Sequence record: PX055572.1
From: a phage
Reading direction: 5' to 3' (one strand)
Length of the DNA stretch: 44,832 bases
Positions 6,160 through 44,449 of the stretch are shown here, piece by piece. Position 1 is the stretch's first letter, and the number at the start of each line of letters is the position of its first letter. The position numbers were made by a program, and so were the translations under genes. The notes under the pieces were generated by a model. That model saw only the letters and a list, made by a program, of their open reading frames with translations. It did not search any database and was not told where the DNA came from.

Positions 6160-6186
6160 GACGGCCTCCTCGTTTCGATGTAATGA

Positions 6187-6215
6187 ATAGTACCCTATTA
6201 TATTGGTGTGTGCAA
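6187..6215 (-). promoter_or_regulatory. Promoter G: TTGCAC-N17-TACTAT with AATAG-N4-CTATT palindrome
   Basis: As transcribed: TTGCAC ACACCAATATAATAGGG TACTAT; ~28 nt upstream of small peptide/lipoprotein operon. Confidence 0.55.
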
Positions 6216-6488
6216 ACTATTTATTTACGTATTCCAGTTATTCCACCGAATTGTAAATGTTGGAATAAACTATTCGAATAGTTGACTTTTCACTGAAAAT
6301 ATGCTAAGCTCCACCTGAGCTTGTGAAGTATGAACAAGCGACCGCGGCGCGGGCAGGTAACGGAGCGGGACGTAAGTCCTGAGTGTAGTTACGCTGACGC
6401 GTTCGGAAGGGCCATACTCTATTGCTTGTGTAAAAAGTAACTGGTTTACTGAGATTACGCCGTTTCTATGTTTAAATGATAAGGACTA

Positions 6489-6520
6489 GCGCCCCGCTTT
6501 ATGGCGGGGCTTTACTTATC
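6489..6520 (+). terminator. Hairpin terminator/attenuator immediately upstream of Rz
   Basis: GCCCCGC-tttatg-GCGGGGC followed by TTTACTTAT; ends 16 nt before Rz ATG. Confidence 0.45.
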
Positions 6521-6922: not shown

Positions 6923-7031
6923 CGACGCTGACGAGGATTTAGCTATCGACGTTCAGAACGCCGAATGCGTGCGGCAACTGCGTCTGAAAGTATTCCAGTT
7001 GCAGGATTATGTGAGGAATATTCTGGAATAG
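6768..7031 (+). CDS. Rz1: o-spanin (Rz1-like outer-membrane lipoprotein), GTG start
   Basis: GTG start with SD AGAGG 7 nt upstream; signal peptide with lipobox LASC; Pro-rich mature N-terminus CSSPTPSQTLIPLP; overlaps 3' end of Rz in a different frame and extends 109 nt beyond. Confidence 0.6.
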   Translation: MKSLSTLKRLVAACALSTMLASCSSPTPSQTLIPLPDTTMMQPPCKLAAPSSDADEDLAIDVQNAECVRQLRLKVFQLQDYVRNILE

Positions 7032-7113
7032 TTGCCTTGCATGTTGGAATAATTTATTCTTGACATGTAAATCCGGGTGGCCCGGGTTCCAACGTCCAGG
7101 GGACATACTGACT

Positions 7114-7815
7114 ATGAATCGTTTTTTACGTTATCCGTTCCAGGAAGAAGCTGGGGCAGAAGATAAAGCTGGTGGCGGTGACGCGCCGAAAATGTTCACC
7201 GCTGAAGAAGTTCAGGCGCTGATTGAGAAAGAAGTTGCCGGGCTTAAGGCTAATCAGGAAGCATTGTTGGCGGAGAAGAAAGAAGCCGCTCGCAAAGCAA
7301 AAGAGGCCGAAGAAGAACGGCAGCGCGCGCACCAGGAGGCGTTAAAAGCCGCTGGTAAGATGGATGAGTTCGAAAAGACGATTCGTAGCCAGTATGACCC
7401 GGTGTTAGCCGAGAAAGACGGTCGCATCTCCAGAATGGCAGAGCGTATCCTCGGCAGCGAACGTAAAGCGGTGCTAGGCTCTTTCGCGGGTGACTTTATT
7501 ACCCCAGAAGCAGTGGACATTCTTGCGCCGTTCGTTAAGACTGAGTTCGAAGGCGATGATGTGGTTACTAAGTTTGTTGGTGCAGACGGTAACGTAATCA
7601 CGACTGACCCGGAACAGTTCCGCAAATACCTGCGCGAACACAAGGCGTTTTCGCATTTGATCAAAGCAAATGCAGCTTCCGGCGGCGGGGCTTCCGGTAG
7701 CAAAGGCGGCGGGGCCGCACCAGCGTTTAAAGACATGAGTGAAGCAGAGCGTTTAGCCCTGTATAAATCGAACCCTGCCGAATTTGAACGGCAACTTAAA
7801 GCCCTGAGGAAATAA
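7114..7815 (+). CDS. Scaffolding protein
   Basis: Ala/Glu/Lys-rich helical protein (EKKEAARKAKEAEEERQRAHQEALKAAG) immediately upstream of major capsid gene; first ATG in ORF. Confidence 0.6.
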   Translation: MNRFLRYPFQEEAGAEDKAGGGDAPKMFTAEEVQALIEKEVAGLKANQEALLAEKKEAARKAKEAEEERQRAHQEALKAAGKMDEFEKTIRSQYDPVLAEKDGRISRMAERILGSERKAVLGSFAGDFITPEAVDILAPFVKTEFEGDDVVTKFVGADGNVITTDPEQFRKYLREHKAFSHLIKANAASGGGASGSKGGGAAPAFKDMSEAERLALYKSNPAEFERQLKALRK

Positions 7816-12954: not shown

Positions 12955-12982
12955 CTAAGGCCCCTTTCGGGGCCTTTTTCTT
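12955..12982. terminator. Bidirectional terminator between major tail gene and reverse cassette
   Basis: AGGCCCC-tttc-GGGGCCT then TTTTCTT; A-rich on the other side. Confidence 0.65.
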
Positions 12983-15380: not shown

Positions 15381-15422
15381 AACATAACTCCTGATTTGAG
15401 ATAACATCGTTGGTGTAAGTGA

Positions 15423-15451
15423 ATAGTACGCTATTATATTGGGGAGTGCAA
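15423..15451 (-). promoter_or_regulatory. Promoter H: TTGCAC-N17-TACTAT with AATAG-N4-CTATT palindrome
   Basis: As transcribed: TTGCAC TCCCCAATATAATAGCG TACTAT; ~40 nt upstream of Imm-like gene. Confidence 0.55.
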
Positions 15452-15558
15452 GTAGTGTGCTAGAATAATTTTGCGCCTAGTGTCGCACACGAAAAGCGGG
15501 TGGTTCCCGTCTGGCGCATTTCCTTTAACCAGTAACCTCTTAACCAAAGGATTAAAGA

Positions 15559-28796: not shown

Positions 28797-29084
28797 CTAA
28801 CTATAATAGTTCGCTATTAGGGTGTCAACCTGTTTGAACGAACCAACTACAAAAACATTTGCACCACGCTTACGCATCCGCTCGTGCTCTCGTAACTGGT
28901 GCGGGTCAGGCTTCGTGCTTTCGTCTTTCTTCACCTCGACGAACCAGACGATGCCGCCAGGGAGAATTACCAGCAGGTCGGGAGCGCCGGAACGCCCCTC
29001 ATACACTATCTTACGAACGAGGCCACCAATGGCCTCGAATCGGTCTTTTGCGTATTTCTGTATTTTGCCCTCAGGCGTACTCAT
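28797..29084 (-). CDS. VRR-NUC domain nuclease
   Basis: PD-(D/E)xK-type core GAPDLLVILPGGIVWFVEVKK; ATG 29084 with SD GAGGGG (ORF track starts at upstream GTG). Confidence 0.6.
   Translation of the reverse strand: MSTPEGKIQKYAKDRFEAIGGLVRKIVYEGRSGAPDLLVILPGGIVWFVEVKKDESTKPDPHQLREHERMRKRGANVFVVGSFKQVDTLIANYYS
28800..28828 (-). promoter_or_regulatory. Promoter A: TTGACA-N17-TATAGT with palindrome in spacer
   Basis: As transcribed: TTGACA CCCTAATAGCGAACTAT TATAGT; between VRR-NUC gene and ORF 28575..28766. Confidence 0.6.
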
Positions 29085-32487: not shown

Positions 32488-32516
32488 ACTATAATAGCTA
32501 ACTATTCAGGTGTCAA
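32488..32516 (-). promoter_or_regulatory. Promoter B: TTGACA-N17-TATAGT with palindrome in spacer
   Basis: As transcribed: TTGACA CCTGAATAGTTAGCTAT TATAGT; upstream of SSB-like gene. Confidence 0.6.
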
Positions 32517-35216: not shown

Positions 35217-35245
35217 ACTATAATAGCGAACTATTCACATGTCAA
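35217..35245 (-). promoter_or_regulatory. Promoter C: TTGACA-N17-TATAGT with palindrome in spacer
   Basis: As transcribed: TTGACA TGTGAATAGTTCGCTAT TATAGT; in divergent region facing Cro-like gene. Confidence 0.6.
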
Positions 35246-35289
35246 TGGGCTTTTCTAAAATAATTAATATGGTACTATTCACATATCAA
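35234..35289 (+). promoter_or_regulatory. Candidate rightward promoter and operator-like half-palindrome for Cro-like gene
   Basis: TTCACA (35234-35239)-N16-TAAAAT (35256-35261) overlapping promoter C; downstream element GGTACTATTCACATATCAA (35271-35289) resembles the palindrome. Confidence 0.35.
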
Positions 35290-35309: not shown

Positions 35310-35525
35310 ATGCAACCATCTGAACTAGGCACCCGTGTAGAACAACGCCGTAAAGAACTCGGCATCTCCCAGCGCCGTTTGGCGGTCCTGACCGGCGTTT
35401 CCCAGGGCGCAATTAACCAGCTGGCTCTCGGTGTAACTCAGGACGTCCGCCCGGCAACGTTGTTTAAACTGGCGGAAGTGCTGGAAGTAGACGCTAAGTG
35501 GCTGGCGTTCGGTGAAGGGGCTTGA
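35310..35525 (+). CDS. HTH XRE-family transcriptional regulator (Cro-like)
   Basis: ISQRRLAVLTGVSQGAINQL helix-turn-helix; 71 aa; SD AAGGAG; divergent from replication operon; followed by terminator. Confidence 0.65.
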   Translation: MQPSELGTRVEQRRKELGISQRRLAVLTGVSQGAINQLALGVTQDVRPATLFKLAEVLEVDAKWLAFGEGA

Positions 35526-35542
35526 CGCCCCTTTCTTTTTAT
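35515..35542 (+). terminator. Intrinsic terminator after Cro-like gene
   Basis: GGGGC-ttgac-GCCCC then TTTCTTTTTATT; overlaps the stop codon. Confidence 0.6.
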
Positions 35543-38075: not shown

Positions 38076-38309
38076 TTATTCCAGGTCTTCTACAGTAGCG
38101 GTCATTCCGCGAACTTCAGCAACTGCGCTATATTTCCCACCAACATTTTTCACGACACCATATTTAACCAGTACCTTCAACGACCCTTCAATAATGGCGG
38201 AACTATAGTACTTAAAATAACTACGGCGCAAGTCCATAACGCTGCACGACCCTTTTTTACGTGTTAATGAAACGACTGCCGTAAATACGCGTGACTGGAA
38301 CTCGGTCAT
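38076..38309 (-). CDS. Small protein, ends in EDLE
   Basis: 77 aa; C-terminus TVEDLE matches the EDLE tails of the exonuclease and primase-helicase. Confidence 0.4.
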   Translation of the reverse strand: MTEFQSRVFTAVVSLTRKKGSCSVMDLRRSYFKYYSSAIIEGSLKVLVKYGVVKNVGGKYSAVAEVRGMTATVEDLE

Positions 38310-38476
38310 TTTACATTCTCCTTAATCCACGCTTCCACTTTCTCCCGGTCAAACGTACCTGGCTGACGGCGGCCCATAATGCGGATACAACAATCCGGGA
38401 ACTTCCCACTCTTTAACCAGTTATTCAGCGTGCGACGGGTAACCCCGATACGCTCAGCTACCTCATTCTGTGTCAT
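38306..38476 (-). CDS. AlpA-like HTH DNA-binding regulator
   Basis: MTQNEVAERIGVTRRTLNNWLKSGKFP... resembles AlpA/excisionase-type HTH (from memory); first ATG downstream of - strand promoter TTGATT-N17-TATACT; ORF track starts at TTG 38503. Confidence 0.5.
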   Translation of the reverse strand: MTQNEVAERIGVTRRTLNNWLKSGKFPDCCIRIMGRRQPGTFDREKVEAWIKENVK

Positions 38477-38508
38477 CCTCAAGCCCCCATTATCAGTTAA
38501 CAAAATCG

Positions 38509-38912: not shown

Positions 38913-38941
38913 TTGCACACCCCAACATAATAGGTTACTAT
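38913..38941 (+). promoter_or_regulatory. Promoter D: TTGCAC-N17-TACTAT with AATAG-N4-CTATT palindrome
   Basis: TTGCAC ACCCCAACATAATAGGT TACTAT; 35 nt upstream of ATG 38976. Confidence 0.55.
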
Positions 38942-38975
38942 TCACTTATAGAAACGAGACAGAGGAGTGAGGGTT

Positions 38976-39892: not shown

Positions 39893-40039
39893 TGTTCAAT
39901 AGTTTGGGATTTTACTGAGTGACTTACGCTGCTACACAGCAGCGTATCATTTTTCTCATTTTTGTTCTATTTCACCAAACGCAACAATCGAAGCGACTAT
40001 TGCAGGAGATGCAATAATACAAACACCAATAAAATTTAC

Positions 40040-40068
40040 TTGCACACTGGGATAGAATAGGCTACTAT
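40040..40068 (+). promoter_or_regulatory. Promoter E: TTGCAC-N17-TACTAT with AATAG-N4-CTATT palindrome
   Basis: TTGCAC ACTGGGATAGAATAGGC TACTAT; 32 nt upstream of ATG 40100. Confidence 0.55.
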
Positions 40069-40099
40069 TCATTTACACAAACGAGAGGAGAGACAGAAG

Positions 40100-42656: not shown

Positions 42657-42676
42657 CTATTTTCTGTAATGACTAG

Positions 42677-42705
42677 TTGACTATTACCTACGACCCTATT
42701 ATATT
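42677..42705 (+). promoter_or_regulatory. Promoter F: TTGACT-N17-TATATT
   Basis: Located after the lysozyme terminator, 34 nt upstream of ATG 42739. Confidence 0.5.
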
Positions 42706-44046: not shown

Positions 44047-44216
44047 TGTTCAGCGACATCAACGCAGCAATCGAAGAGGCAATCTGGCGCCGCTACAACG
44101 GAGAGCAGCAGCGGCACTTCTGCCTGGTGCAACGTGGTAACATGATTGCCGTAGTGCAGGACCGCGATAACAAATACCCGAATGCGATGTGGACAACGAG
44201 GAATTTCGTAGGATGA
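44046..44216 (+). CDS. Hypothetical protein
   Basis: 56 aa from ATG 44046. Confidence 0.35.
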   Translation: MFSDINAAIEEAIWRRYNGEQQRHFCLVQRGNMIAVVQDRDNKYPNAMWTTRNFVG

Positions 44217-44449
44217 TTACCAGCATTCCGAACCTGATTAAAGAATACGGCACGATGGCCGAGACATGCCGACAAACCGGCATCAACGAAATGACGATTG
44301 CCAAGTACAGCAAAGACGTTGATTGCGAGCGCCATGTAATTTATAACAATCGTCTGATGACACATGTTAAGACAAGCCCGGTGTTATTCACGCGCCGAGG
44401 TATCACTAAAACTGAGCAACGCATTGCTAAAGGGGAGAGTGGGGAATGA
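44213..44449 (+). CDS. Hypothetical protein
   Basis: 78 aa from ATG 44213. Confidence 0.35.
   Translation: MITSIPNLIKEYGTMAETCRQTGINEMTIAKYSKDVDCERHVIYNNRLMTHVKTSPVLFTRRGITKTEQRIAKGESGE

Follow-up and report, generated by a model that had tools for sequence, protein, structure and literature searches.

A 14-bp palindrome on the predicted sigma-70 promoters of a Kagunavirus is an operator-like element for which a Cro-like protein is the most likely binder

The sequence PX055572.1 (44,832 nucleotides; the whole stretch analysed, hereafter the window) is, judged from its sequence, the near-complete genome of a virulent siphovirus of the genus Kagunavirus (Guernseyvirinae). Over an 8-kb stretch of the window, the Escherichia phages BEU33 and BEU35 cover 86% at 93% identity, and the same stretch also matches phiEc3, K1ind1, and hundreds of Salmonella Jerseyvirus records. 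The gene order of the window agrees with that of phiEc3, Jersey, and ST20, and no integrase, CI, or RNA polymerase genes are annotated in these three relatives. The vB_EcoS-Golestan report states that lysogeny-related genes were not detected in this Kagunavirus (PMC7203180). The element under study is the 14-bp palindrome AATAG-N4-CTATT, which recurs on predicted promoters of the window and for which the first-pass annotation had proposed a role as the operator of a phage-encoded dimeric regulator.

The seven copies of the palindrome that had been listed in the first-pass annotation all hold AATAG-N4-CTATT. Its frequency is also above the dinucleotide-shuffled background: seven exact copies stand against a mean of 0.06 and a maximum of one in the shuffles. 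With at most one mismatch allowed, the window contains 10 sites against 1.05 expected, and this number was reached in none of 100 shuffles. With at most two mismatches, 21 sites are found where 16.1 are expected; the two-mismatch class (11 sites) is thus at the level of chance. AATAG-N4-CTATT is the commonest recurring 5-Nx-5 palindrome of the window, with terminator stems next in rank, and no Rfam family matches at the palindromes themselves. All 10 sites with at most one mismatch lie on the -35 element, the spacer, or the -10 element of predicted sigma-70 promoters upstream of operons, and the hexamers of these promoters are 17–18 bp apart. The earlier statement that the palindrome sits inside all seven promoters is circular; predicted promoters without the motif exist in the window, for instance that of the AlpA-like/helicase-primase operon (38537->38509).

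The exact sites fall into two classes (Table 1). In class B, which comprises three sites on the minus strand, TTGACA is followed by 4 nt, the palindrome, and ATAGT, and the -10 hexamer TATAGT begins with the final T of the palindrome. This arrangement is a near-consensus predicted sigma-70 promoter with 11 of 12 matches and a 17-bp spacer. The class B palindrome occupies the spacer, abuts the -10 hexamer, and spans approximately positions -25 to -12. In class A, which comprises two sites on each strand, TTGCAC is followed by 10 nt and AATAG-NNTA-CTATT. Here the -10 hexamer TACTAT lies within the right arm, and the palindrome spans approximately -19 to -6. The two fixed registers that had been described for the window, one in the spacer abutting the -10 and one overlapping it, were thus recovered. 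The sites lying over a -35 element span approximately -40 to -27. Promoters of both classes are followed by a similar leader, ACACCAAACGAG, then by a ribosome-binding site, an ATG, and the operon.

Table 1. Palindrome sites, associated promoter elements, and candidate binder genes of the window
Feature	Position	Strand	Remarks
Site 1, exact	6186..6199	-	class A; -35 TTGCAC 6215-6210, -10 TACTAT 6192-6187
One-mismatch site AATAGTTGACTTTT	6277..6290	+	over -35 TTGACT (6282-6287) of a predicted promoter
Extended -10 TGCTAAGCT	6302-6310	+	predicted promoter of the 6277 site
Site 2, exact	15422..15435	-	class A; -35 15451-15446, -10 15428-15423
p63, 63 aa	28575-28766		first gene of a class B operon
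Site 3, exact	28805..28818	-	class B; TTGACA 28828-28823, TATAGT 28805-28800
Site 4, exact	32493..32506	-	class B; TTGACA 32516-32511, TATAGT 32493-32488
Site 5, exact	35222..35235	-	class B; TTGACA 35245-35240, TATAGT 35222-35217
One-mismatch site AATATGGTACTATT	35266..35279	+	over -10 TACTAT 35273-35278, predicted promoter of the Cro-like gene
Cro-like HTH_3 protein, 71 aa	35310..35525	+	leading candidate binder; closest solved relative phage 434 Cro
AlpA-like HTH_17 gene	38306..38503	-	considered as binder, rejected
Site 6, exact	38929..38942	+	class A; TTGCAC 38913-38918, TACTAT 38936-38941
Site 7, exact	40056..40069	+	class A; TTGCAC 40040-40045, TACTAT 40063-40068
One-mismatch site ACTAGTTGACTATT	42672..42685	+	over -35 TTGACT 42677-42682; -10 TATATT 42700-42705

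Conservation of the palindrome was assessed in 76 IMG/VR loci collected via the Cro-like protein, several complete genomes, and two Logan contigs; locus L080 is the complete Kagunavirus ST20, and L003 is PhiSTP2. Between Kagunavirus and Jerseyvirus, the Cro-like proteins are only about 50% identical and the helicase-primases 57%. Approximately 50 genomes of the two genera have retained the motif at orthologous promoters. Beside the Cro-like gene, the exact site is present in 34 of 34 Kagunavirus IMG/VR loci, and all Jerseyvirus loci carry a conserved one-mismatch version, AATAG-AGTA-CGATT. The majority of the other orthologous promoters in both genera have the motif as well. At the SSB promoter, the site is exact in 41 of 45 loci and has one mismatch in the other four. 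The p63 promoter carries the exact site in 24 of 32 Kagunavirus loci and a site with one mismatch in two. In the remaining six an insertion parts the promoter from p63, and in L004, the insertion locus that was checked, the exact site is still present further upstream of this gene. Column entropy, computed on orthologs that were found by anchors outside the motif, is 0.05–0.08 bit in the 10 half-site columns, 0.9–1.0 bit in the central four bases, and 0.4–0.9 bit in the flanks.

The position of the palindrome relative to the promoter elements varies from promoter to promoter. Between the -35 hexamer and the palindrome lie 4 or 5 nt at class B promoters and 10 or 11 nt at those of class A; the Jersey ortholog of site 2 has 7 nt there and TATTAT as its -10 hexamer. 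Two promoters bear the site right over the -35. The register of the palindrome is thus not tied to the elements contacted by the polymerase. Variant half-sites also occur in either arm. The ortholog of the 42672 site reads ACTAG-TTGA-CTATT in Kagunavirus versus AATAG-TTGA-CTAGT in Jerseyvirus, with the variant half-site in the opposite arm, and the AATCG variant is found as a left arm and, at a different promoter, as a right arm. Nearly invariant half-sites, a free centre, a movable register, and half-site variants in either arm point to a two-fold symmetric protein-binding site whose placement suits repression. This conservation pattern is what selection for binding of a symmetric dimer predicts, and it is hard to explain by common descent of the promoters or by polymerase contacts alone. 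Together with the conservation across two genera, these features lend good support to the operator role proposed in the first-pass annotation.

A scan of 2.9 million IMG/VR viral contigs for the class B composite TTGACA-N4-AATAG-N4-CTATTATA returned 51 stretches. All of them lie on contigs of 41–45 kb, which is the range of this phage group, or on fragments, and most had already been found via the Cro-like gene. In the PhiSTP2-like sister group, no site with at most one mismatch was found, and the orthologous promoters carry degenerate versions. Judged from these sequences, the motif is restricted to the Kagunavirus/Jerseyvirus lineage. PhiSTP2 has another promoter-embedded palindrome, TATTA-N6-TAATA (L003 3813, 16892, and 38881), in which TAATAT is the -10 hexamer. 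The idea of a replacement palindrome that covaries with the Cro-like protein of PhiSTP2 was rejected: only TATTA-N6-TAATA was found, at the three promoters, and no repeated 20-mer family.

The same sequences have been published without their symmetry being described. They are listed as 20-mers among seven PHIRE "phage-specific promoters" of vB_EcoS-Golestan (PMC7203180, Table S4), and for fBC-Eco01 seven PHIRE promoters with the consensus tgAATAGTa-ccTATTat-T were ascribed to a phage RNA polymerase (PMC9825357, Table S2). The PHIRE promoters, such as TAATAGGGTACTATTCATTA and TAATATGGTACTATTCACAT, have the same sequences and the same genomic positions as the sites of the window. Dyad symmetry, variable register, and an operator role are mentioned in neither of the two papers.

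The predicted promoters with palindromes precede operons of different function. The promoter at site 3 drives p63, a methyltransferase, and an SNF2 helicase; that at site 4, an SSB-like gene and the DNA polymerase; and that at site 7, small open reading frames and the lysis genes. Site 5 belongs to a predicted promoter with an A/T-rich, UP-like tract upstream, divergent from the Cro-like gene. Between P_left and P_cro there are only one perfect and one imperfect site, 44 bp apart. The imperfect one had been described in the first-pass annotation as a half-site at 35271–35289 and is actually the full one-mismatch site AATATGGTACTATT at 35266–35279; its mismatching T and the following G make up the TG of an extended -10 element. 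The everted copy noted previously at 6270–6283 exists, and it consists of the left arm of the 6277 site and an extra CTATT upstream (6271–6275). It is better read as an ordinary one-mismatch site, AATAGTTGACTTTT, at 6277–6290, accompanied by this additional CTATT; the 6277 site is conserved in L001 and L080.

Several further features were observed beside these sites. The predicted promoter at site 2, which drives the superinfection-immunity and phosphoesterase operon, is arranged back-to-back with a plus-strand promoter for an int-alpA RNA and the tail operon. The RNA at 15470–15534 (+) matches Rfam family RF02996 with 36.6 bits against a gathering score of 35.8. It begins at the predicted start site of the extended -10 promoter TGCTAGAAT (~15458–15466) and forms the leader of the tail-gene operon. 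The one-mismatch site at 6277 lies over the -35 of a candidate non-coding RNA (6282–6518, +), whose strong predicted promoter consists of TTGACT, 17 nt, and TGCTAAGCT and which ends in an intrinsic terminator at 6491–6518. This RNA contains a conserved region of ~115 nt with 30 predicted pairs, seven of them with compensatory changes among 10 sequences, and it has no Rfam match. Diverged second copies with 78–89% identity were found in L001 (37399–37542), L080 (6858–6717), and about 20 IMG/VR loci. Many Kagunaviruses have this second copy in the interval from the AlpA-like gene to the promoter of site 6; the window lacks it. Seven relatives possess an extra exact palindrome (L004 14567, L005 14750, L014 14663, L018 13351, L020 14595, L023 5998, and L032 14662) just upstream of a terminator and 158–373 bp before site 7. 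Its AATAG holds the stop codon of the preceding gene, which is a DUF551 gene in the window, and the window ortholog (39898–39911) is degenerate with two mismatches. The extra palindrome may be an auxiliary operator or a chance feature. Near-identical hairpins, AAGGCCCC-N4-GGGGCCTT, occur at convergent operon junctions (3297, 12958, 25533, and 31758). They are probably bidirectional terminators, since a terminator was detected on both strands at 12957–12976.

The most likely binder of the palindrome is the Cro-like protein, one of three candidates named in the first-pass annotation and the only one that remains plausible. Its gene is a single-gene unit with a strong terminator (35514–35534) at its end. 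The product belongs to the Pfam family HTH_3 (E 2e-12, 47.2 bits against a cutoff of 23). Among solved chains, the nearest is that of 434 Cro, also of 71 amino acids, which aligns over residues 6–68 with an E value of 1.3e-6, in effect end to end. All sampled Kagunavirus and Jerseyvirus loci encode the protein. Among Kagunavirus variants with identities as low as 78%, its recognition helix, VSQGAINQLALG, does not change, and a diverged lineage retains site 5 and the imperfect P_cro site despite changed DNA between them. The operators of phage 434 (ACAA-N6-TTGT) are 14 bp long with conserved outer bases and a free centre, and the palindrome resembles them in its length, two-fold symmetry, conserved outer bases, unconstrained centre, and overlap with core promoters. 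In 434, base 1 of the operator, an A, is read by a Gln with which helix 3 begins. The Cro-like protein conserves this Gln, and base 1 of the palindrome is also A.

We place about even confidence in the reading that the palindrome is an operator, bound on sigma-70 promoters by a dimeric repressor that is most likely the Cro-like protein. Several points weigh against it. The helix-3 sequence is SQGAINQ in Kagunavirus and SQSLITH in Jerseyvirus despite the identical operator motif, and the PhiSTP2 group has a Jersey-like helix (TQSAISH) yet lacks the motif. Protein and site therefore do not covary cleanly. The same operators are bound by 434 Cro and by 434 repressor, whose helix-3 residues differ; by analogy, this precedent softens the objection without removing it. 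The right arm of class A doubles as the -10 hexamer, so a part of the conservation needs no extra factor. About 10 sites on each replicating genome copy would need to be covered by a repressor whose promoter is weak. The motif is observed together with its statistics, its placement on promoters, and the pattern of its conservation; we infer the reality of the predicted promoters, the binding of a protein to the site, repression by this binding, and the identity of the protein as the Cro-like one. The sole transcriptome of a relative, a time course of Kagunavirus K1B4, shows an HTH-domain (helix-turn-helix) gene as early and a "specific DNA binding" gene as middle. It is too coarse to show shut-off, with peaks up to 120 min against a latent period of 30 min and with unmapped start sites (PMC12645636).

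A broader alternative, which we regard as possible though doubtful, is that a single lineage-specific factor reads one palindrome in four registers on essentially every promoter, with position and quality of the site encoding a temporal programme. This factor may be other than the Cro-like protein, either an invariant host regulator or a host polymerase modified by p63. In a separate alternative, a host transcription factor conserved in E. coli and Salmonella binds the site and couples the phage promoters to host physiology. The regulators that the two genera themselves encode have diverged to about 50% identity and the motif has stayed invariant, and promoters have seemingly been exchanged between the genera (mosaic loci L047 and L043); an invariant host protein would be the simplest account of both. 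However, the motif is missing from PhiSTP2-like phages, which have the same Salmonella hosts. We also know of no enterobacterial factor that matches AATAG-N4-CTATT, which counts against a host protein; FNR, ArgR, MntR, and OxyR have sites of related geometry or with related half-sites, and their sequence or spacing is different. We consider such a host factor unlikely.

We consider it slightly less probable still that the palindrome is an extended promoter consensus, duplicated from one ancestral promoter and kept because its -10-like sequences on both strands suit RNA polymerase, with no separate factor involved. The arms do resemble -10 hexamers (TACTAT in class A, TATAGT in class B), TATAAT is present on the opposite strand or just upstream, and the leader ACACCAAACGAG is common to both classes. 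The PHIRE lists, moreover, give the motif merely as a repeated promoter 20-mer. A promoter consensus is, however, difficult to reconcile with the occurrence of the palindrome in at least four registers with respect to -35, -10, and leader, one of them right over the -35. Sigma-70 normally ignores spacer bases, yet the left arm, where it lies in the spacer, varies no more than the -10, and the same variant half-sites are found in either arm. The -10-like hexamers of the opposite strand lack a usable -35, and on this inspection of the sequence a reading of the sites as bidirectional promoters was also rejected.

Another phage-encoded binder, either a small DNA-binding protein that has escaped recognition or a polymerase modified by p63, appears improbable as well. 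The distribution of p63 is identical to that of the motif: its 448 phage records are confined to Kagunavirus and Jerseyvirus, with 90–100% identity. The gene heads a class B operon, and purifying selection on it is strong: as many as 20 third positions have changed without a single amino-acid change. Its evolutionary rate fits the invariance of the site better than that of the Cro-like protein. The confident structure model of p63 is an SH3-like barrel resembling domain I of EF-P/eIF5A, KOW, and Tudor domains. This fold suggests a polymerase or ribosome partner rather than a palindrome-reading protein, and p63 was rejected as a DNA binder on the basis of this model, in spite of its co-distribution with the motif and its invariance. 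The NinH-like protein (44189–44449) was rejected too; the PhiSTP2 group has it despite lacking the motif, and it matches Pfam only below the threshold. Pfam and PHROGs scans of the other small open reading frames revealed no further DNA-binding domains.

The two remaining candidates of the first-pass annotation, the AlpA-like HTH_17 protein and the metallophosphoesterase with its N-terminal helix-turn-helix, are very improbable binders. Both are absent from PhiSTP2, which lacks the motif. The HTH_17 protein, with 443 phage records, is 72–98% conserved across both genera, and the HTH-domain gene called early in the K1B4 transcriptome would, from gene order, be its homolog. The AlpA-like protein is nevertheless contradicted as a general binder by ST20, which lacks a homolog and has six exact sites, and by L006 and L032, which hold unrelated genes in its place and keep the palindromes. 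As for the metallophosphoesterase, its family is found in 2039 phage records across unrelated siphoviruses, far beyond the range of the motif; T1-like, Klebsiella, Vibrio, and Campylobacter phages are among them, and DNA repair exonuclease is a frequent annotation of its members. Its helix-turn-helix gives only a sub-threshold, GerE-like match.

In the three loci without the AlpA-like gene, this gene and the adjacent gene for a 77-aa protein are replaced (L006 3624–4209, L032 12559–13144, ST20 6954–7539). The replacements encode a 47-aa CxxC...CxxC protein and a 149-aa protein, neither of which has a significant Pfam match. The replacement, seen in a minority of Kagunaviruses, marks a putative swappable module immediately before the helicase-primase gene.

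The notion that the motif is the promoter of a phage-encoded RNA polymerase, as which it is labelled in the fBC-Eco01 report ("Phage RNAP promoter" for the seven PHIRE hits), is effectively refuted by gene content: no such polymerase gene is annotated in phiEc3, Jersey, or ST20. The motif, which as a palindrome carries no direction, also lies among sigma-70 hexamers spaced by 17–18 bp upstream of predicted start sites; the published ascription is wrong.

In comparison with known systems, the palindrome and the Cro-like protein are of the Cro-type repressor-operator kind as far as can be judged from sequence. An HTH_3 protein, a symmetric operator-like site of ~14 bp, and overlap with predicted core promoters are all found here, as in Cro/CI-type systems. 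The lambdoid CI/Cro switch is not: CI and integrase are not annotated in the relatives, and there is no tandem operator array between P_left and P_cro. In contrast to phage 434, the half-site is AATAG instead of ACAAG or ACAAT, and there is no CI partner, no tandem OR1–3 array, and no lysogeny module. Single sites are instead dispersed over about 10 promoters genome-wide, and their binding by the protein is a prediction. The dispersed, register-variable layout in a virulent phage is unusual for an operator of this kind. One regulator with many scattered sites at or near promoters is also known from the P1 C1 operators and the "stoperators" of mycobacteriophage L5 gp71. Both of these systems maintain lysogeny and use asymmetric sites, whereas the site studied here is symmetric, always on the core promoter, and present in a virulent phage. 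Similar to MerR-type operators, the class B palindrome lies within the spacer between -35 and -10. MerR promoters, however, have over-long spacers of 19–20 bp, unlike the optimal 17–18 bp found here, and the sole MerR-like helix-turn-helix protein, HTH_17, is dispensable.

We propose that a symmetric dimer, most likely of the Cro-like protein, accumulates after infection and would occupy the operators that overlap the -35, the spacer, or the -10 of promoters used by the host polymerase. Since the site covers one of these elements, its occupancy would block RNA polymerase. The replication and recombination operons (sites 3–5), the accessory operons (sites 1, 2, and 6), and the operon containing the lysis genes (site 7) would be turned down. 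One regulator could in this way act jointly on the replication, accessory, lysis, and some late operons. Weaker repression would be expected at two further promoters and at that of the Cro-like gene itself. As the latter promoter carries a weakened site, the Cro-like gene would be subject to negative autoregulation. The promoter of the AlpA-like/helicase-primase operon would escape. The position and the quality of the sites, seven of which are perfect and three of which have one mismatch, may set the order in which the operons respond. The circuit would thus be a Cro-only shut-off without a CI partner.

Kagunavirus and Jerseyvirus are among the most frequently isolated therapy and biocontrol candidates for E. 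coli and Salmonella, and to our knowledge nothing is known of the regulation of transcription in these phages. The reading of the palindrome as an operator corrects a recurring annotation error, in which "phage RNA-polymerase promoters" are assigned in genomes that encode no such polymerase, and it would account for the presence of a gene annotated as "repressor" in strictly virulent phages. It yields a compact and testable regulon with a single 14-bp site, some 10 promoters, and a leading candidate for the binding protein. The pairs of promoters and putative operators could serve as orthogonal parts for phage engineering.
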